NCBI GenBank assembly: GCA_018267965.1
Contig: JAFDXK010000001.1
Span: 1,195,520-1,259,519, forward strand
Length of the DNA: 64,000 bases
Direction: 5' to 3'
Origin: Bacteroidota bacterium
GTDB lineage: Bacteria; Bacteroidota; Bacteroidia; Chitinophagales; Chitinophagaceae
In this document: in pieces, positions 7,358 through 41,557 of the stretch
How the letters are laid out: each line of letters begins with the position of its first letter
Position numbering within the stretch: position 1 is the stretch's first letter
Notes under the pieces: model-generated
The model's input: the letters and a program-made list of their open reading frames with translations, nothing else
The model's database searches: none
Told to the model about the DNA's origin: nothing
Program-made: the position numbers and the translations under genes

Positions 7358-8065
7358 GTGTTGATTATGAAAGGGAAATTATACCTGATACCGATTCCAA
7401 TTGCTGAGAATGCTGTACACACGTTATCGGCAGAGATAATAACGCATACGCTCACTATTAAACATTATGTGGCAGAAAATGCGCGTACCGCCAGACGTTT
7501 TCTTAAGTCCATACATCCGTCATTAGTAATAGATGAGATACAATTCATAGAAATTGATAAACATGAAGGTGCTGATACTAAGACCTTTAAACAATGGCTG
7601 AAGGATGGTTTGACTGTTGGTGTAATGAGTGAAGCAGGATGTCCGGGAGTAGCAGACCCTGGTGCAGATATTGTGAGCATAGCGCAGGAGATGAACGCAG
7701 AGGTTATTCCACTAACAGGGCCTAACTCAATGACATTAGCGTTAATGGCTTCGGGACTAAATGGTCAGAGTTTTTGTTTTAATGGTTACCTGCCTATAAA
7801 AGAACCATTAAGAAGCCAAAAGATAAAAGCATTAGAGGCTCTATCTAAAAAAGAAAATCAAACACAGCTATTTATTGAAACACCTTACCGCAATAACCAA
7901 CTGTTAGATGAATTGATAAAAAACTGCAGTGGGGATACAAGACTATGCATTGCACTGAACATAAGCGCAACTGATGCGTTTATCAAAACAAAGAAAATAA
8001 ACGAATGGAAACAATCTAAACCTACATTAGAAAAAGCTCCTGCGGTATTTCTTTTATTGGCTTAG
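7358..8065 (+). CDS. SAM-dependent methyltransferase, tetrapyrrole-methylase/RsmI-like fold
   Basis: 235 aa. The LYLIPIPI...ENA N-terminus and the GCPGVADPG motif are typical of the RsmI/TP-methylase family. Confidence 0.65.
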   Translation: MLIMKGKLYLIPIPIAENAVHTLSAEIITHTLTIKHYVAENARTARRFLKSIHPSLVIDEIQFIEIDKHEGADTKTFKQWLKDGLTVGVMSEAGCPGVADPGADIVSIAQEMNAEVIPLTGPNSMTLALMASGLNGQSFCFNGYLPIKEPLRSQKIKALEALSKKENQTQLFIETPYRNNQLLDELIKNCSGDTRLCIALNISATDAFIKTKKINEWKQSKPTLEKAPAVFLLLA

Positions 8066-8463
8066 TAATTTATTGCCTTTACTTCGTCAATACGGTCTAC
8101 AATATATTGTCCTTTCTCCTGGTTGACCTTGTTGTAATTCTCACCACGCCATGGTAACACACCATGATACTGTATGTAGTGTAGTGTTACTAATTTACCA
8201 CCGCAACGTTCTAATGAATCGGCTATCTTCTCATCATTTACGCTGAAATAAAAATACTGCGCACTATATGCAGGACCTTGTTTGCCAAAGCCCAATAGAA
8301 TTATTTCGCCCTCGTATGTTTTGAACAGGTTGCCTTTGCGTGAGAACTTCTGCAAAATACCATCTCTTCTGCCATCGCTATAAGGATAATAATAAGTGAA
8401 GTATACATATCCTATCACGAACACAACCAGTACTGCAATACTAATAAATACAGCTTTTCGCAT
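8062..8463 (-). CDS. Hypothetical membrane-anchored protein
   Basis: 133 aa ORF with one N-terminal transmembrane helix and no recognisable family. It overlaps the upstream gene by 4 nt in convergent orientation. Confidence 0.4.
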   Translation of the reverse strand: MRKAVFISIAVLVVFVIGYVYFTYYYPYSDGRRDGILQKFSRKGNLFKTYEGEIILLGFGKQGPAYSAQYFYFSVNDEKIADSLERCGGKLVTLHYIQYHGVLPWRGENYNKVNQEKGQYIVDRIDEVKAINY

Positions 8464-8525
8464 AAAACAATTGTTTGCTTAAGATATGCATATCATACAA
8501 GATACCCCATATCTCGGTATGAAAT

Positions 8526-9662
8526 TTACTTTACCTTTCTGCCTTTCCATTTATACACACCAATAAACCCTAAAAAGCCTGCCAATACAATGTATATGAT
8601 ATGCAAAGGTTGCAAAAAAGGAAATATAATCAGCTGTTTTTCTTTTTTAAAGAACCTCGCAACAGGGTACAGATAGTCTAATTCGGTTATGGTCTTTACC
8701 ACCAAAGCTACTAATACCAACAACCAGTGTCCGGGTACAAATAACGCGTAAATAGTAAGTAATAGAATGGATAGATTGAACAGGTAAACCAGTAATAAGA
8801 TAGCTGTTAATCGTTTATCATTATACTTGCCCGATTTAGATGCCCAGCGTATTCGTTGCTGTAAAAAGTTGCTCCAGTCGGGTTGAGGAGCTGTTCTTAC
8901 AATAACTTCCTGTGATTTGAGATATGCAATACCATCGGGGTAAGCTTGTTTAATCTTCATCATCAGTAAATAATCGTCCCCAGATGCCAGATTATCTATG
9001 CCCTTATAGCCACCTACCCTATCATATACTTCTCGTGTGAAAGCAAGATTGGCACCATTGCTCATATTACCTAAGCCCAGCTTATGCGATGCAGCAGTGA
9101 TTCCCTGCATACTCATAAAATCTAAGGACTGAAACATCTGTACAACACTGCCATTGCTTGTAAAATCAACAGGTGCAACAATCATTGCAGGTTTTATTTC
9201 TTCGTATAATGCAGCTATATTTTTAAGCCAGTTTTGAGGCGCTACGCAATCTGCATCAGTAGTAATAATTAACTCACCGTTAGATATCGCAATAGCTTTT
9301 GAGAGTGCTAATTTTTTGTATGCAACTGTTTTTTCATCTGGAGAAATAACATCTGCCAGCTTAACAGATTTGATATAGGGATTATTAAACGCTTGCACTA
9401 CTCCTGCGGTATTATCAGTTGAATGATCATCAACAACTATCACTTCAAACAGATGCTTAGGATAGTCCTGAGCTATTATTGATTGCAGACATTTACCAAT
9501 ATTCTGTTCTTCATTACAGGCAGGAATAACAATACTGATTTTCGTTTTTGGTGTAAACCCTTGCTCTATCTCAAATACAGGTTGCGCAGACCATCCCCTG
9601 CGATATACCAACATGAGTATAGCATAGGCAATAACGAACGATATGGATATATAAGGTATCAC
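8526..9662 (-). CDS. Glycosyltransferase family 2 membrane protein
   Basis: 378 aa. An N-terminal TM helix is followed by ISIVIPACNEEQNI and DD/DAD motifs of GT2, with C-terminal TM helices. Confidence 0.75.
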   Translation of the reverse strand: MIPYISISFVIAYAILMLVYRRGWSAQPVFEIEQGFTPKTKISIVIPACNEEQNIGKCLQSIIAQDYPKHLFEVIVVDDHSTDNTAGVVQAFNNPYIKSVKLADVISPDEKTVAYKKLALSKAIAISNGELIITTDADCVAPQNWLKNIAALYEEIKPAMIVAPVDFTSNGSVVQMFQSLDFMSMQGITAASHKLGLGNMSNGANLAFTREVYDRVGGYKGIDNLASGDDYLLMMKIKQAYPDGIAYLKSQEVIVRTAPQPDWSNFLQQRIRWASKSGKYNDKRLTAILLLVYLFNLSILLLTIYALFVPGHWLLVLVALVVKTITELDYLYPVARFFKKEKQLIIFPFLQPLHIIYIVLAGFLGFIGVYKWKGRKVK

Positions 9663-10477
9663 AAGCAGGCTACTATTTGAGGTATGGTATCTTCATCAAA
9701 CAATAAATGTCCTTTCTCAACTACGTGCAGTGATATGTTCTTCATTTTATCTTCGAACGCATGACCATGTGATACCGGTATCACATTATCATAAGCGCCC
9801 ATAAAGACATGCACCTTTGTCTTATTGCTTTTGCATATCGCTTTTAACTTATTATAGTCGGGCAACAGTAGAGACATGCAAGGCCATACTTTTAAGAGGA
9901 ATGCCCGGTCTTCTTTTTCCTGTATGTAACGCATCGCAAGTTTGTAATGCGATTGCTGCACAATCTTCCATTTTCTTGCCATTTTTATCAACGGCAAATA
10001 TCTTTCAGGCTTAGACAAGAAACTACTGAATAAATATTTCCCTGCTTTCATGCGGGTAAGGAAATAGTAAAAAGGATTGGAGGTTAAGCCATCTGAAGCC
10101 AATAAAATAACATTGTCCACTTTACCCGGAGATTGTTCTAATATCTTCAGGCATACCCTGCCACCCATACTATACCCTAACAGGCTTATTTGGCTGACAT
10201 TATATTCTCTACAAAGTTGTTCTACTAATTCATCCAACATGGCAGGTTCCAGATAAACACCATCAGTCCAAAGGCTCTTACCATGATGAGGTAAGTCAAG
10301 GCTTAAGATTGTATACTTTTCTTCTACATGTGTCGCAATTGGCATCAGTATCTCAGCACTATTGCCATATCCGTGCAACATTACCAACAAACTGCTGCCA
10401 CGACCTGATTTCAGATAGTGCAATTGCTCTTTGCCGACTGATATAAATCCAGATGAATAAGCCATTAACTTCCTCAA
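9659..10477 (-). CDS. Alpha/beta hydrolase fold protein
   Basis: 272 aa with an HGYGNS oxyanion region and a GYSMGG nucleophile elbow. It overlaps the GT2 gene by 4 nt. Confidence 0.7.
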   Translation of the reverse strand: MRKLMAYSSGFISVGKEQLHYLKSGRGSSLLVMLHGYGNSAEILMPIATHVEEKYTILSLDLPHHGKSLWTDGVYLEPAMLDELVEQLCREYNVSQISLLGYSMGGRVCLKILEQSPGKVDNVILLASDGLTSNPFYYFLTRMKAGKYLFSSFLSKPERYLPLIKMARKWKIVQQSHYKLAMRYIQEKEDRAFLLKVWPCMSLLLPDYNKLKAICKSNKTKVHVFMGAYDNVIPVSHGHAFEDKMKNISLHVVEKGHLLFDEDTIPQIVACL

Positions 10478-19129: not shown

Positions 19130-20608
19130 TTGAAAACCTTACAACAAATATTAGCTTTTATACAACCTGCACCCAGGCTGAAGTTGTTGATGTTTGTGGT
19201 GGTTTGTTACTGTCTGTCACTCAATCTTTCTTTTCCCCGCCAACCTGATTATAATGAGTTTAACACTTCTTTGGAGAGGAGTATGGCTATAGAGAAAAGA
19301 AGTACAGCAAAAAGACTTAATGCTATTGAAGAAGAAGGAAAAACATACCGAGAACGTTATACAGTATATTTAGAAAAAGCCTACAATATCAACGCATGTT
19401 TTCTTAAAGTCACTGCAAATATTGATTCTATAAAAAGTTGCATTGATCCTACTTCAACGCATAAATATCATGTAAGTGCAGAAACAATTGATTATTTAGA
19501 TAACAGCATAAATCAATTCCTTAAGTCAATCGGCGATAATATCAGCCAGAATATTAGAGACTATCTTGTTAAGGATATTACCGATTGTCTATTTAAAGAA
19601 ACAAGCAACAAAACCTTATTAACAGCACTTTTAAAAGATAAAACTGCGAACGAAACTTATACGCTTTTAACCGTAATACAAAACAACATTACTTTATCTA
19701 ATGAAGTAGCTATTCAGGAAATTTCAAAAGAAGCTGGTGGCTGTAACTTAATATGTGATATACCATTTTGTGTTGCCATTCCTTTAACCTGTTATGTGCA
19801 ATACGGAGATAAAGTAAAAGCTCAAATGTTTATTGGCAATTACAACAAAGCTACCAACCCTACTTTTACTACCAATAGAGGCCATATAACAAAAGTTGAA
19901 AATGGATTAGCTTCATTAATTGCCAATACTAAATACCCGGGGCTATACCAATTATACGGCACTGCTACATTAGAAGATTACGACGATACAATTATCAGAC
20001 CGTGGTCTACTCAATACTATGTAGCTAACCAGGGAGTGTTTATGAACATATGCAAACCTAATTATTGCTACAGAGGCATGAATAATACCGTTACACTTAA
20101 CTATCCGGGTTATGAAGCTGATAAATTATCATTAAGGGCTGATGGTGCTAAAGTGATAAAACTATCTGATGGCAGGTATAATATTATAGTTGATAAATCT
20201 CCTAAAGAAATTACAGCCTATATGGATGGCATCAACCCCGATGGCAGTAAGAGTGTTGCACTGGCTACCAAGCGAATTATTGTGGCTAATCCTCCCCCAC
20301 CCATAGCTTGCGTGGGCGATAATGCGGGTGGTCATATCAGTTTAAAAGAACTAACTCGTAACAACAAACTATCTGTAACACCCCGTGATGAAGACATAGA
20401 TATGGTGTATAGTATTAAGAGTTATCAAATTACATGTTTGAATAGCAAGTCTTTTACCGAAGCTGTAACTATTGAGGGAGGTGTATTTGACAAAGATATC
20501 ATCAGCAAACTTCAGCATGGCGACAGGATATATTTTACAGACATTGTGGCTGCCGACAAGAATGGGAAAATGATTACAGTGCCACCTGTTGCATTTGTCA
20601 TTGAGTAA
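19130..20608 (+). CDS. Hypothetical membrane-anchored protein with GldM/PorM C-terminal-like region
   Basis: 492 aa with one N-terminal hydrophobic helix. The C-terminal 150 aa show patterned similarity to the GldM C-terminal Ig-like domains (GD-x-I/V-x-F/I-x-x-I ... P-x-V-x-x-V-I-E end). No gldK/L/N neighbours. The start codon is uncertain. Confidence 0.4.
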   Translation: MKTLQQILAFIQPAPRLKLLMFVVVCYCLSLNLSFPRQPDYNEFNTSLERSMAIEKRSTAKRLNAIEEEGKTYRERYTVYLEKAYNINACFLKVTANIDSIKSCIDPTSTHKYHVSAETIDYLDNSINQFLKSIGDNISQNIRDYLVKDITDCLFKETSNKTLLTALLKDKTANETYTLLTVIQNNITLSNEVAIQEISKEAGGCNLICDIPFCVAIPLTCYVQYGDKVKAQMFIGNYNKATNPTFTTNRGHITKVENGLASLIANTKYPGLYQLYGTATLEDYDDTIIRPWSTQYYVANQGVFMNICKPNYCYRGMNNTVTLNYPGYEADKLSLRADGAKVIKLSDGRYNIIVDKSPKEITAYMDGINPDGSKSVALATKRIIVANPPPPIACVGDNAGGHISLKELTRNNKLSVTPRDEDIDMVYSIKSYQITCLNSKSFTEAVTIEGGVFDKDIISKLQHGDRIYFTDIVAADKNGKMITVPPVAFVIE

Positions 20609-25920: not shown

Positions 25921-26949
25921 ATGAATATGTATAAATATCTTGCCATACTGCTATCATTGACATCAGTGCTTTCTTATGGGCAGAAGAAGTACACTGTTCG
26001 CAATACTTACCAATACGAAGGAGATGACAGCACAAATGCAAAATTGGTACTGACTGAAAAATATAACGCCAATGGTAAAATTATACACGCGAAATATGAC
26101 TACTATACGAATACATTTGAAGAAAATAACAATTATTATGACGTAGGAGAAAACTATTACTATTACAGGGACACCTTTCTCATAAAACAACTTGAAGTTC
26201 ACAAGGCTGTTAGATGGGACCTTACTGGTAGAAAAAGATTGAATTCATATATAAATGGCGATAGCTCATTATTTTACTATGACTATGATATTGATAAACT
26301 GGGAAGAATAAAATCTATAAAAATCACATCGTCCGAAAAAGTATCATACAATATGATGTGCGGCAATGAAGCAGAATTGTTTGATGACACATTAAGCCTG
26401 CGAGATACCCTTTTAAGAAGTATGAAACAGCAATTAGTAGATATGCATAATAAAATGGAAGACTCAAAACAATGGAGTATACCCACTGTTCAGTCTACAT
26501 CGTACGAATATGATGAACACGGTTTAGCTACAGAAACTACTAACCAGGGAGTAGCTCTAGGCCAAAAATATATATACGACTATGAGTATAATACCAACAA
26601 ATTGATTTCAAAAACTGCATACATAAAATCTGAAAAAAATAATGAGTTTATATACGCTGCAACATACCTATATAAGTATTATCCAGACCACTCAACAGTT
26701 TACCGTATTGGCAACTGGATGCTTAAAAAAGCTGTACCAGATGATAAGGGAATATTGAGTGTACCATCTACTGTAAGAACCTCATATTATAATCTGAAGA
26801 AACTATTAACGCGTGTAATAATTGCAGACGGTTACGACAACAGCATACATACAATCTATTTCTATTACGATAAATACGATAGACTAACAAAAGACGTTAC
26901 GCAGTATTTCGAGCACTCAAAAATTACACACCGCTACACCTACGAATAA
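25921..26949 (+). CDS. Secreted YD/RHS-repeat-containing protein (small)
   Basis: 342 aa with a signal peptide. It carries repeated YxYDxxG(R/K)(L/I) motifs (YDYDIDKLGRIKSI, YEYDEHGLATETT, YDYEYNTNKLISKT, YYDKYDRLTKDVT). Confidence 0.55.
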   Translation: MNMYKYLAILLSLTSVLSYGQKKYTVRNTYQYEGDDSTNAKLVLTEKYNANGKIIHAKYDYYTNTFEENNNYYDVGENYYYYRDTFLIKQLEVHKAVRWDLTGRKRLNSYINGDSSLFYYDYDIDKLGRIKSIKITSSEKVSYNMMCGNEAELFDDTLSLRDTLLRSMKQQLVDMHNKMEDSKQWSIPTVQSTSYEYDEHGLATETTNQGVALGQKYIYDYEYNTNKLISKTAYIKSEKNNEFIYAATYLYKYYPDHSTVYRIGNWMLKKAVPDDKGILSVPSTVRTSYYNLKKLLTRVIIADGYDNSIHTIYFYYDKYDRLTKDVTQYFEHSKITHRYTYE

Positions 26950-37486: not shown

Positions 37487-37559
<73 letters not shown>

Positions 37560-37562
37560 CAA

Positions 37563-37608: not shown

Positions 37609-38103
37609 CTACTTTAATGTTGGCAATAATTCTTCAAGGTAATTTAACGTAGCAGTGAATCCTTCTTTGAAGCCCATTTCAATCATTCTTTCCATGCGCT
37701 CAAGAGAATCATTGTAAATAGTGATACTCACTTTCGTTATTCCGTTTTGTTCACTGAAAGTCAAATCCCAATCAGAGCCTGGCAATTGAGGGTTTGCATC
37801 TTTATCGGCAAAAGCATTTACGTATTTAAAATTAGTTTTCGGGCTGATGGACGTGTACATGTGCATGGCATAATGTTCCTGCCCTTCGGGGCTTACCATA
37901 GCGTAAAACCTTTGTCCTCCCACTTCAAAATTCATCGCCTTTGTTTTTGAGGTAAATGGTTTGGGCGCCCACCATAAGTCCAGTATATCAGCATTAGTCC
38001 ATGCATCCCAAACAAGGTCAAGACCGGCATTAAATTCACGCACAATGTGTGCTGTTTTAGTTTCCTTGTTTAAGGAAAAATCGAATAAAAGATTATTGCT
38101 CAT
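37609..38103 (-). CDS. SRPBCC domain protein (AHSA1/activator of Hsp90 ATPase-like)
   Basis: 164 aa with SRPBCC-fold composition. It is commonly co-transcribed with ArsR-type regulators, and overlaps arsR by 4 nt. Confidence 0.65.
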
Positions 38104-38420
38104 TTCTTCTTATTTTTTAGTGTGAGTAATACATCATCAAGTTGATTGAAACGGGCTTCCCATATTTTCCTGAATTGCTCCAGCCAGATATCAACCTCTT
38201 TCATTTTTTTTATTTCAAGTGAGTAGTAGATCTCCCTACCCTGTTGCTCTTGTTTCACCAGCTCGCATTCTGTGAGTATCTGTAAATGTTTGGATACAGA
38301 CTGGCGGGTGGTGTCAAAATGCTCGGCAATCGCATTGGGTGTCATTGCTTGTAGCGCTATAAGTACCATAATGGCCCTTCTTGTGGGGTCAGCTATGGCT
38401 TGAAAAACGTCTCTTCTCAT
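38100..38420 (-). CDS. ArsR/SmtB family metalloregulatory transcriptional repressor
   Basis: 106 aa. A winged HTH ([16 protein letters not shown]...[23 protein letters not shown]) is the canonical ArsR signature. Confidence 0.85.
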
Positions 38421-38424
38421 TGTA

Positions 38425-38480
38425 AACAGTTATAATTATGCAATCGTTCGGTTGCAAATATATACGCAATCATTCGGTTG
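38425..38480. promoter_or_regulatory. Putative ArsR operator: two direct copies of GCAATC(G/A)TTCGGTTGC upstream of arsR
   Basis: gcaatcgttcggttgc at about 38430..38445 and gcaatcattcggttgc at about 38457..38472. Each has GCAA/TTGC inverted arms. They lie immediately upstream of the arsR start. Confidence 0.45.
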
Positions 38481-38600
38481 CGCAAGTTTTTTTGAGAAAA
38501 TTTTAATATGGATTATAAAATACTGCGAATAAAATAATGATAATTCGTACTAAGTATATGATGCTATTACTTAAATAATAATTACATTTCTCAAACCGTT

Positions 38601-40463
38601 CTAATCAATATCTTTAAAGTTCACTTTGACGTATTTCCAATTCTTGATTAAATACAATGGAACCTTAATCGGACTCTGATAATTAACTGTATCTGCAATA
38701 CTCCTTGCAAAAATAGATACAATAGCATTGGGATTTGACTTTATGTAAGACTCAGAAATAACACCATGGTCTGCTTTGAATCTATCATTAAAAAGTAGTA
38801 TACTTTCTTTTATTCCTGAAAGTTTATATAGCCCTAAGAATAGTTTATTATTAGAAATTTTATCTTCAATGAAATGGTCATTCCATAATTTTAGAACATA
38901 ATATCCAAGCTTCTCTGTAGGATTAAATACTGTTTTCTGTTGAACAATTCTATCCAGATAAATTTCTATATATTTTTTTTGTTCTTGCTTCTGAGATTTA
39001 GTAAGATTAATAATATCAATAAACAGATTAGATGTATTCCGGGTTAAAACGGTAGCCATTGCACTCTCAAGAGGCATATGTGCCAACTCATTCTTAATAT
39101 CATCATCTAAAGGATTATAGTTAGCAATATAAAAGCCTGCTAAATACTCCTGAATAGATTTGTGTGAAAACTGGTAAAGATCATATCCACAAACAAGGAT
39201 AATCCCTGAGTGGTCTCGTATTTCATTTACTACCTCTTCAGGGCTATTCTGAGGTAAATTTGGATAGAATTTTTTTATATCATCGTAAGCTGTAACTAAA
39301 TTTAATCTATTGAAATAAACCAAATTTCTACACAATAATTTATATGCAAGATGAGATAAAAACGATAACTTATCAATGTAATCAAAATTTGCATATTTTG
39401 ATTCTCGATGAATACCCCCTCGAACTTTATCCCAACGCATAAATAATATTTCAATTACGTCTCTATACAAATTTTTTGGGATTTCTGGGATTCTGTTATT
39501 TATTGAATAAAGGCCAGCTAAATAAGATAAAATTAATGGTTGTCCAGCCACATCATTAAATGCTGAATTCATTATTTCTATATAAAACAAACTCCCCTTT
39601 TCTTGTCCAAGCCATTTTTCAGAAAATTCTAAAATTTGAGACGGTTTAAATGGGGCAATTTCAAATACATGAATATTACTAGGGGAAAAGTCAAAATTCG
39701 ATGTTCGTGAAGTAATAATCAACTTTGATTTTTGTAGGTATTGGCTTATCTCATTTAGTTCTTGGTAAACAACAGACTGTTGTAAAATAGGCAACTCATC
39801 AAATCCATCAACAATTAATAAACACTTAAGGGCATCTATATAATCCCATATTTCATGCCTTATTTTCGCACTTTCAACCTTGAAATCTTTGAAAATATCT
39901 TTATTATGTCGCACTAGAATTCCTAATTCTTCTTGCAAATATTCAGTAACAACATATTTACATTTAACATCTGTATTATTTATTTTTCTGCATAAAACAA
40001 CTAGTGGACAAGTATAATCCGACAAATAATTTTCCTCTGTGATGCATTTATACGTAATCATTTTCATGGATGTTGTTTTACCCATCCCTGCTTCCCCAAC
40101 AATTGCAAGATGCTTATCTGTTTGAGAGAAAATTGTATCTATAAGCTTCTCATTGGTACCCTGATTTGCAAAATGATTATATCGCGCAGTAACATAATAC
40201 TCCAAATCTATATAAGTATTTTTGACATCTTTTGAATTTTCAAAACTGATACCTTCTAAGTTTTGACACCAAGATTGTATTTTTTTTGAGAGATTTTGGA
40301 ATGAATGCTCTAGTTCATGTTTTGACACTTTTAAATTAATGTCTTCTCTTTTAAGCCCTTCACGCAGTTTAGTATATGCTTCATTAAAAGCTTTTTCAAA
40401 CAAAAAAGACGTTATTCCCATGAGATAGATTATATAAATAATAAATATAGCAATACAAATCAA
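38601..40463 (-). CDS. Membrane-anchored NACHT-domain (STAND) NTPase
   Basis: 620 aa with an N-terminal TM helix (MICIAIFIIYIIYLMGITSFLF). The NACHT motifs are Walker A GEAGMGKTT, Walker B LLIVDGFDE, sensor IITSRTS, a GxP-like AGQPLIL, and a winged-helix signature FSHKSIQEYLAGFY. The gene is strongly AT-rich compared with its neighbours. Confidence 0.8.
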   Translation of the reverse strand: MICIAIFIIYIIYLMGITSFLFEKAFNEAYTKLREGLKREDINLKVSKHELEHSFQNLSKKIQSWCQNLEGISFENSKDVKNTYIDLEYYVTARYNHFANQGTNEKLIDTIFSQTDKHLAIVGEAGMGKTTSMKMITYKCITEENYLSDYTCPLVVLCRKINNTDVKCKYVVTEYLQEELGILVRHNKDIFKDFKVESAKIRHEIWDYIDALKCLLIVDGFDELPILQQSVVYQELNEISQYLQKSKLIITSRTSNFDFSPSNIHVFEIAPFKPSQILEFSEKWLGQEKGSLFYIEIMNSAFNDVAGQPLILSYLAGLYSINNRIPEIPKNLYRDVIEILFMRWDKVRGGIHRESKYANFDYIDKLSFLSHLAYKLLCRNLVYFNRLNLVTAYDDIKKFYPNLPQNSPEEVVNEIRDHSGIILVCGYDLYQFSHKSIQEYLAGFYIANYNPLDDDIKNELAHMPLESAMATVLTRNTSNLFIDIINLTKSQKQEQKKYIEIYLDRIVQQKTVFNPTEKLGYYVLKLWNDHFIEDKISNNKLFLGLYKLSGIKESILLFNDRFKADHGVISESYIKSNPNAIVSIFARSIADTVNYQSPIKVPLYLIKNWKYVKVNFKDID

Positions 40464-40570
40464 TAAATTATTATTAAAATTTAGGTAGTTATTGTGATTT
40501 CTTTGACATATTGATATAGTAGAAAAAACAACTAACTCATTTCATTAATTTTATAGTTTAACTTGGCATA

Positions 40571-41557
40571 GTGCTGACGGATAACCACGGAAGAAAAATC
40601 AATTATTTAAGGCTGGCTGTAACTGACAGATGCAACCTGCGCTGCAGCTATTGTATGCCCGAAGAAGGCATTAATTGGCTGGATAGAAAGGAGCTGATGA
40701 GTTATGAAGAAATGCTGGTTACCTGCAGCCTGTTGGTAAAGATGGGTATAGAGAAAATACGCATTACAGGTGGCGAGCCTTTTGTGCGTAAGGACATGAT
40801 GCCGTTCCTGGAACAATTATCTCAGTTGCAGGGATTAAAAGAATTAACACTAACCACTAACGGTGTGTTGACAGCGCCTTTGATACCTGAACTGAAAAGA
40901 TTGGGTATTCGTTCCATCAACCTGAGTCTTGACACATTAGACAGGAACCGTTTTTTCGCTATCAGTTTTCGGGATGAGTTTGATGCGGTATTAGAAACCA
41001 TAGATACTGCTTTGCAACATGGCATAGAACTGAAAACAAATACGGTGGTGATGGATGGCAAGAATACGATGGACATCATTCCGATGGTTAACCTGACCAA
41101 AGACCTGCCTATTAGTGTGCGTTTTATAGAAGAGATGCCTTTCAACGGTGGAGAAGCACACTACAAGCATTGGGAATGGAACCATGTAAAAATACTGAAC
41201 ACTATTAAAGAGGCTTATCCGGGTATTGAAAAGATACAGGATGCCGCCTACTCTACTGCCTACAACTATCATATACCGGGTCATAAGGGCAATGTAGGCA
41301 TTATAGCAGCTTATACACGTTCGTTTTGCGGCACTTGCAACAGGTTACGCATAACACCTGAAGGCATACTGAAGACCTGCCTGTATGATAATGGCGTGCT
41401 CAACATGAAACAACTGATGAGAGATGGCTTGTCTGCCGAAGAAATAGAACAGCAATTACTGAACAAAATAAAAAGCCGTGCAGCAAACGGCCACGAAGCA
41501 GAACGCAACAGGCTTAATAACCCCGTGCATGAATCGATGAGCACGATAGGCGGATAA
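40571..41557 (+). CDS. moaA: GTP 3',8-cyclase (molybdenum cofactor biosynthesis protein A)
   Basis: 328 aa with a radical-SAM CNLRCSYCMP cluster motif and a C-terminal second cluster (CGTCNRLR). Confidence 0.9.
   Translation: MLTDNHGRKINYLRLAVTDRCNLRCSYCMPEEGINWLDRKELMSYEEMLVTCSLLVKMGIEKIRITGGEPFVRKDMMPFLEQLSQLQGLKELTLTTNGVLTAPLIPELKRLGIRSINLSLDTLDRNRFFAISFRDEFDAVLETIDTALQHGIELKTNTVVMDGKNTMDIIPMVNLTKDLPISVRFIEEMPFNGGEAHYKHWEWNHVKILNTIKEAYPGIEKIQDAAYSTAYNYHIPGHKGNVGIIAAYTRSFCGTCNRLRITPEGILKTCLYDNGVLNMKQLMRDGLSAEEIEQQLLNKIKSRAANGHEAERNRLNNPVHESMSTIGG

Follow-up and report, generated by a model that had tools for sequence, protein, structure and literature searches.

A candidate single-gene NLR-like antiphage sensor encoded between arsR and moaA in a Bacteroidota bacterium

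What is the function of a solitary, AT-rich gene for a NACHT protein that lies between arsR and moaA in a Bacteroidota bacterium? The stretch of DNA analysed here (the window) comprises 64,000 nucleotides of contig JAFDXK010000001.1 (assembly GCA_018267965.1, positions 1,195,520 to 1,259,519), and the gene occupies its minus strand within 38601..40463. An earlier sequence-only reading had proposed that this gene encodes a membrane-anchored NACHT NTPase of the STAND type (signal transduction ATPases with numerous domains), unusual in architecture and possibly acting as a single-gene antiphage or signalling system. Overall, we consider it probable that the product is a single-gene abortive-infection sensor related in design to nucleotide-binding leucine-rich repeat (NLR) proteins and belonging with the short bacterial NACHT (bNACHT) proteins, in which the C-terminus would sense, the NACHT module would oligomerise and the clustered N-terminal helices would kill. 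This mechanism is proposed by analogy with bNACHT01 and bNACHT11. The protein itself is a divergent member of an already described class of short NLR-like defence proteins, and its architecture is a common one.

NACHT core and kinship with tested antiphage proteins

The open reading frame (ORF) at 38601..40463 on the minus strand was recovered, and the four motifs quoted by the sequence-only reading were all present at verified coordinates. Residues are numbered throughout from the ATG at 40421, and invariance refers to an alignment of 150 family sequences.

38601..40421, minus strand: coding sequence of the 606-residue NACHT protein with an ATG start, stop codon 38601-38603 included (ORF and Pfam NACHT match; start and stop verified)
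39117..40202, minus strand: NACHT module, residues 74-435, consisting of the nucleotide-binding domain, helical domain 1 and the winged-helix domain
40071..40097, minus strand: Walker A motif GEAGMGKTT with K115 (G109, G112, G114 and K115 invariant)
39795..39821, minus strand: Walker B motif LLIVDGFDE, with the NACHT-specific D[GAS]hDE signature as DGFDE at residues 205-209 (G206, D208 and E209 invariant)
39699..39719, minus strand: sensor-1 region IITSRTS (R239 invariant)
39129..39170, minus strand: winged-helix histidine motif FSHKSIQEYLAGFY with H420 (F418, H420, S422 and E425 invariant)

The Pfam NACHT model PF05729 matched the protein with 47.8 bits (gathering cutoff 26.7; E=1.8e-12) and also matched 99 of the 99 family members scanned, so the assignment to the NACHT/STAND NTPases held when checked with a hidden Markov model. 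The protein thus combines PF05729, the D[GAS]hDE signature defined for NACHT proteins (10.1101/2022.07.19.500537) and a winged-helix extension with a conserved histidine, which are the features of the NACHT subclade. H420 lies within FSHKSIQEY, a motif that aligns with FHKSFQEY of NLRC4. An AlphaFold2 model computed from 150 family sequences reached a mean predicted local distance difference test score (pLDDT) of 85.4 and a predicted template modelling score (pTM) of 0.83, compared to 76 and 0.76 for an earlier model from 13 sequences, and its top structural matches were NOD2, NLRP3 and NLRC4, that is, proteins of the NLR fold. Compared to these animal NLRs, the window protein has no leucine-rich repeat (LRR) sensor, CARD or PYD, and sequence identity is 12-16%.

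The closest experimentally studied counterparts were found among the short bacterial NACHT proteins. bNACHT01 is WP_015632533.1, an accession confirmed in the literature (10.1101/2024.12.17.629029), and was recovered as a Klebsiella pneumoniae plasmid match (L022 1219-3048). Aligned by hhalign, the family profile matched bNACHT01 at 98.8% (E=5e-17; query 78-437 to target 77-417), an Escherichia coli plasmid NACHT protein that starts with MDPIT (WP_024127758.1; L023 1-1905) at 99.2% (E=1e-19), and SNaCT8- and SNaCT11-bearing proteins at 99.6%. The two NACHT modules are homologous and in register, with the Walker A lysine of bNACHT01 also at K115, and the lengths are similar (606 residues versus 609 for bNACHT01); like the short clade-14 proteins bNACHT01, 02, 11, 12 and 23, the window protein is a single polypeptide of about 600 residues. 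The window protein and the bNACHT01/11 type both have a short N-terminal extension in which no enzymatic domain is recognisable and a short non-repeat C-terminal domain that is the most variable part, and their genes are mobile (plasmids, prophages, islands). They differ in that NACHT identity between them is only about 24%, and in that the hosts of the window family are mainly low-GC bacteria such as Bacteroidota, whereas those of the bNACHT01/11 type are Enterobacteria.

For clade 14, the most abundant bacterial NACHT clade, the reported layout is a NACHT module between a short N-terminus and a short C-terminal domain without repeats (10.1101/2022.07.19.500537; 10.1101/2024.12.17.629029), and short C-terminal extensions are the hallmark of this monophyletic clade (10.1101/2022.07.19.500537). 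The C-terminal extension of the window protein is likewise short and consists of non-repeat helices and a small beta part without any repeat-family match. The architecture, which had been called unusual, is therefore the one of this abundant clade, where likeness to clade 14 is a matter of pairwise profile homology to clade-14 members and not of placement in a tree. None of the 99 scanned members matched the Pfam SNaCT, NNH, NCH or NCAB models. The missing SNaCT match carries little weight because bNACHT01 and the MDPIT-type protein WP_024127758.1 had no SNaCT match at E<=1e-3 either; the current SNaCT models fail to cover even reference clade-14 proteins. The bNACHT11 structure 9ORF was not returned when SNaCT-bearing relatives were queried against PDB sequences.

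The family is large. An exhaustive HMMER profile search of 1.84 billion cluster representatives returned 40,776 matches at E<=1e-3, of which 2,657 reached E<=1e-30. The 150 top-ranking matches were all at E<=1e-162, and most of them were full-length, with 590-650 residues. A word-indexed search had returned 19 relatives and suggested a very rare family, a view overturned by the 2,657 HMMER matches at E<=1e-30.

Terminal regions and the proposed mechanism

Outside the NACHT module, two regions are relevant to how the protein may work.

40263..40421, minus strand: N-terminal two-helix hairpin, residues 1-53, with helix 1 at residues 3-25 and helix 2 at residues 34-53 (AlphaFold2, pLDDT 93-96 over residues 11-50)
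38604..39116, minus strand: C-terminal region, residues 436-606 (AlphaFold2; highest entropy of the family; aligns with no compared NACHT C-terminus)

In the AlphaFold2 model, the hairpin, whose helix 2 carries the conserved W51, is followed by a short beta/loop segment, and then by the nucleotide-binding domain, helical domain 1 and winged-helix domain, which run to about residue 435. The C-terminal region was modelled as helices over residues 440-547 and a small alpha/beta part over residues 548-601 (pLDDT 45-59). The sequence-only reading had described a C-terminal region of roughly 250 residues with no recognisable repeats. Its non-repeat character was borne out, with no tetratricopeptide repeat, WD40 or LRR either in the window protein or among the Pfam matches tabulated for the 99 family members, none of which had any Pfam domain in this region. 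Its size was not, as some of this stretch still belongs to the NACHT module, namely to its helical and winged-helix portions: 186 residues lie beyond H420 (family median 185), and about 170 residues align with no other NACHT protein. Positional entropy was lowest in helical domain 1 and the winged-helix domain (1.66 bits), intermediate in the nucleotide-binding domain (2.2) and the N-terminal helices (2.7-2.9), and highest in the C-terminal 100 residues (3.1), a trend that was the same with 13 sequences. The SNaCT sensor domain is known for rapid diversification and is the most variable region of the proteins that carry it. In bNACHT11, SNaCT binds several unrelated phage proteins, and this binding induces a heptameric ring (10.1101/2024.12.17.629029). 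By analogy in position to SNaCT, the C-terminal domain of the window protein may be its sensor.

The N-terminus appears from domain comparisons to be the output position of the family. Longer members, which are close relatives within the family (E<=1e-162), carry additional N-terminal domains, namely TIR_2 (P0116), Trypsin_2 (P0101) and PNP_UDP_1 (P0141), and an EAD11 N-terminus was found in P0007, P0036, P0082, P0095, P0150 and P0162 as well as in 10 of 76 further members. In these effector-fused relatives, helix 2 with its conserved tryptophan persists, while the sequence ahead of it has been exchanged or lengthened. A STAND NTPase with interchangeable conflict-type domains at one of its ends is the NLR pattern described for bacterial NACHT proteins (10.1101/2022.07.19.500537). 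Short forms account for 87 of the 157 representatives, and their N-terminus is conserved from residue 2 with the consensus M-I-x-E-[YI]-L-L-K-K-x-h-D-x-A; a start of the type M[ILVF]x[EDQ] was found in 36 of the 87. By analogy with tested short NACHT proteins, helix 1 is proposed to be a minimal effector.

This family start can be compared to the known N-terminal motifs of such proteins. bNACHT11 has a short N-terminal MDPIT extension in which D2 and P3 are essential, and it triggers a plasmolysis-type death (10.1101/2024.12.17.629029), while related helices of the MEPIS type stand at the start of the Bell, Hell and HeLo modules, which target membranes (10.1101/2024.11.07.622273). Similar to all of these, the window protein has an alpha-helix that begins at residue 2-3 and belongs to a small bundle or hairpin of helices located where an NLR-type protein has its output. 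The window family starts with MI-x-E-[YI]-L-L-K-K and the window protein with MGITSF, rather than with MDPIT. A [DE]P pair within the first eight residues occurred in a minority of short forms (6 of 87, four of which start in a MEP-, MDP- or MIDP-like manner, including MEPIT-type starts), for example MEPITAYLIKK in P0030 and MDPSSFLL in P0056; the window protein (MGITSFLFEKAFNEAYTKLR) has no such acidic-proline pair and aligns gap-free with P0056 (MDPSSFLLNRLFVEAYNELK). The MDPIT/MEPIS motif is not universal in clade 14, because bNACHT01 itself starts with MDIIQ. Compared to Babybell and Bell domains, which have four or five helices, the hairpin of the window protein has two predicted helices.

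On these grounds, the following course of events is proposed. The protein would rest as an autoinhibited, nucleotide-bound monomer until its fast-evolving C-terminal domain of about 170 residues detects the phage, either by binding one or several of its proteins or through a change that the phage brings about. Sensing would free the NACHT module for NTP-dependent oligomerisation into a ring, and this ring would cluster the N-terminal helical hairpins. The clustered helix 1 might then harm the inner membrane or osmotic homeostasis, so that the infected cell would die before phage release. The same logic, with a one-gene STAND NTPase, a C-terminal sensor, an N-terminal effector and abortive infection, is that of the Avs/AVAST systems.

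Several observations weigh against this proposal. The hhalign alignments with other NACHT proteins all stop at about residue 440, and the C-terminal domain aligns with neither SNaCT8 nor SNaCT11, bNACHT01 or the MDPIT-type protein; the model is also of low confidence over roughly the last 60 residues of this domain. At the other end, the start of the window protein, MGITS, does not contain D2 and P3, without which bNACHT11 does not work, and helix 1 shows only weak amphipathicity (hydrophobic moment 0.21) and no strong hydrophobicity, which makes a direct action on the membrane speculative. Among the 150 aligned sequences, none diverge more than those of the window protein and its closest homologue, P0002, so that family properties may not transfer fully to them. 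PADLOC v2 recognised no system in the window protein and returned only noise at the P-loop level (mad8, IetA). As for the locus, the genomes available for comparison are distant (moaA 59-80% identity), and a look-up of the exact ArsR sequence for contigs of the same species gave no other contig.

An alternative explanation, which we consider unlikely, is that the protein is an NLR-like sensor whose hairpin serves as an adaptor or an autoinhibitory coiled coil, while killing or signalling is performed by a separate partner. EAD11 pairs would be the model for this arrangement: the EAD11-NACHT member P0007 (L021 2319-5102) is followed at once by a gene for a 207-residue protein in which EAD11 is the sole strong domain, and the two form a candidate adaptor-effector pair. 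A literature search on EAD11 returned nothing relevant. The absence of the D2/P3 motif and the weak amphipathicity of helix 1 would also fit an adaptor. Against a separate partner, however, no neighbour of the short-form members was kept across six contexts, arsR and the SRPBCC gene occur together without the NACHT gene in another genome (L010, see below), and conservation of the N-terminal end begins as early as residue 2, which is also the case in bNACHT11, a short protein that has been tested. A killing role of the protein's own N-terminal helices remains our preferred reading.

The AT-rich insert and the contexts of relatives

The gene and its surroundings comprise the following features.

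38421..40570, no strand assigned: AT-rich insert, that is, the NACHT gene and both intergenic regions from the arsR start to the moaA start (GC profile; L010 comparison)
38100-38420: arsR, flanking the NACHT gene
40571-41557: moaA, flanking the NACHT gene
37487-37560: tRNA-Lys(CTT), two genes from the NACHT gene, with an AHSA1/SRPBCC gene and arsR between

These coordinates confirmed the setting that had been described, between arsR and moaA and two genes away from a tRNA-Lys. The foreign composition of the island was likewise confirmed: the NACHT gene has a GC content of 0.299 (0.226 at third codon positions), compared to 0.397+-0.023 for equal-length windows elsewhere (z=-4.3), and is the lowest-GC 1.8-kb stretch in the 64-kb window. 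In 6 of 6 homologue genes examined, GC content was 4-14 points below that of the flanks. We conclude that the NACHT gene was horizontally acquired and inserted between arsR and the moaA operon. The tRNA-Lys as an integration site is unsupported because neither an integrase near the island nor convincing att-like direct repeats flanking it were found (only AT-rich 13-19-mers were present), and its proximity may be a coincidence.

Variable presence of the gene at this locus was evaluated at 13 related moaA loci from Chitinophagaceae-like metagenome-assembled genomes (MAGs), Flavipsychrobacter, Pontibacter and Saprospiraceae, with moaA 59-80% identical in the closest eleven. None of the 13 carried a relative of the NACHT gene (tblastn), and upstream synteny across these loci was mostly lost at such distance. 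In the Flavipsychrobacter MAG L010, arsR and the SRPBCC gene are kept beside moaA without the NACHT gene, and the slot holds an unrelated gene for a 623-residue protein with SLFN_AlbA_2 and HATPase_c_4 domains (8059-9930, plus strand; GC 0.41 versus a locus average of 0.46), which gave weak PADLOC matches to pAgo-associated models. This single comparison hints that the junction of arsR and moaA is a recurrent cargo slot. The arsR-SRPBCC pair had been considered as a partner of the NACHT gene and was rejected, as the pair adjoins moaA without it in L010.

Side observations were also made in the window. Directly upstream of the arsR start codon, a 24-nucleotide tandem direct repeat (38432-38481; ATAATTATGCAATCGTTCGGTTGC and ATATATACGCAATCATTCGGTTGC, 83% identical) overlaps a hairpin at 38463-38484, and the two could plausibly act as an ArsR operator, a terminator of the NACHT gene, or both. 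Lower GC content (about 0.34) was also found at 19130-20608 and 25921-26949, which hold ORFs of 492 and 342 residues without obvious identity. The region at 23-26 kb has a higher GC content and contains an RNase R-like gene, identified from its translation alone. A scan for sigma-70 promoters returned 17 sites versus 14.7 expected and was uninformative, as the model is ill-suited to Bacteroidota.

Several relatives were found in defence-related or mobile surroundings. P0008 (L003) has a complete type I Thoeris system, made up of ThsA (E=6e-200) and two ThsB, about 3.5 kb upstream of it. Just upstream of P0008, L003 3923-9413 contains this Thoeris system and a gene for a 692-residue acetyltransferase-domain protein with a PDC-M11A-like region, and these genes together with P0008 form a defence island. 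Another relative is encoded on the opposite strand within the replication module of a prophage (DnaD-like loader, RusA, SSB, Sak4), three relatives lie on IMG/VR viral contigs, and the window protein matches phrog_18297 (6e-27). Together with the homology to bNACHT01, the relatives near Thoeris, in a prophage and on viral contigs make a single-gene antiphage system plausible, as had been proposed. The NCBIfam model EruA was dismissed as a candidate identity (38 bits versus a cutoff of 1000).

It is also conceivable, and in our view quite improbable, that the protein is a STAND NTPase for signalling or regulation outside phage defence, or for maintenance of a mobile element or competition between such elements. 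The PADLOC result would be in line with such a role, as would the contexts of several relatives and the 64-kb window itself, in which no defence genes were recognisable. The window protein, however, has no DNA-binding or enzymatic output domain, and its family swaps TIR, protease, nucleosidase and EAD11 domains at the N-terminus, which are typical outputs of conflict systems. Relatives located beside Thoeris and inside a prophage and the fast diversification of the C-terminus also speak against such a role.

Start codon, supposed membrane anchor and divergence

The sequence-only reading had placed a transmembrane (TM) helix at the N-terminus. This helix depends on which start codon is used, as the ORF at 38601..40463 encodes 620 residues if read from an upstream TTG.

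40422..40463, minus strand: 14 codons between TTG 40463 and ATG 40421 (LICIAIFIIYIIYL), kept in no homologue, with TM-like hydropathy only when this stretch is included

If translation started at TTG 40463, residues 1-22 would make up a TM helix by which the NTPase is held at the inner membrane. The TTG and the ATG are not separated by an in-frame stop codon, the extended protein reaches a Kyte-Doolittle mean of 2.48 over its best 19-residue stretch, and TM-bearing bacterial NACHT proteins have already been described (10.1101/2022.07.19.500537). The remaining evidence favours the ATG. With translation from this codon, hydropathy peaks at 0.2 within the first 60 residues, and 0 of 12 full-length homologues had a TM-like N-terminus by hydropathy. 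The 14-residue extension is missing from, or unrelated in, all homologues, most of which open with a methionine ('MI..') at the position of the window ATG. The NCBI product (P0001; 606 residues, 100% identical to the window NACHT protein) is also ATG-initiated. The Walker A glycine is residue 109 from the ATG, which is the modal position among 157 family members, whereas the TTG would shift it to 123. Finally, the extension lies in the intergenic DNA between the NACHT gene and moaA, which has a GC content of 0.188. A TM anchor is therefore rejected, as its hydrophobicity requires the 14 upstream codons while the NCBI start, the homologue starts and the Walker A position all favour the ATG; membrane tethering from the TTG is very improbable. 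We conclude that the ATG at 40421 is the true start of a 606-residue protein predicted to be soluble, and the stretch 40422..40463 is most likely an untranslated AT-rich leader or promoter from which the spurious TM helix originated.

A similar case was observed in P0002, whose annotated N-terminus (L001 10001-10090) is over-extended, hydrophobic and aromatic, and unrelated in sequence to the window extension; the family profile matches this protein only from residue 35. Judging by these two genes, the start-codon artefact seems to recur in AT-rich upstream DNA. For annotation, the lesson is that an apparent TM anchor can be a start-codon artefact of such DNA.

P0002 is also informative about the divergence of the window protein. 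The two are about 50% identical to each other, and 23-24 of 89 conserved columns are changed in them, most changes being common to both; these shared unusual substitutions argue for a conserved sub-lineage and not for decay. That the horizontally acquired gene has lost its function and is now decaying, as its rank of second most divergent among the 150, its 23 changed columns of 89 and the missing D2/P3 might suggest, is extremely improbable in view of an intact 606-codon ORF within DNA of 30% GC, the retention of all invariant catalytic residues and the occurrence of most of the 23 substitutions in P0002.

Beyond the proposed function of the single protein, a more far-reaching view is possible, which we regard as doubtful at present: the window protein may represent a distinct, mostly Bacteroidota-type lineage of short NLRs, in which the M-I-x-E-[YI]-L-L-K-K helix would be a new minimal cell-death effector distinct from MDPIT/MEPIS and the C-terminal domain, covered by no current model, a new phage-sensing class, with the arsR-moaA junction perhaps a recurrent slot for defence cargo in Chitinophagaceae-like genomes. 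If the protein is an antiphage sensor as proposed, the short NLR defence architecture of bNACHT01 and bNACHT11 would extend from Enterobacteria to a large family. Environmental bacteria of low GC content and the phages of these bacteria commonly carry this family, which is missed by PADLOC v2 and the Pfam SNaCT models. With their different N-terminal motif and unaligned C-terminal domain, its members would be useful natural variants, which could help to explain by what means a single helix of some 25 residues brings about cell death and what allows a small domain to recognise phage proteins of diverse kinds.

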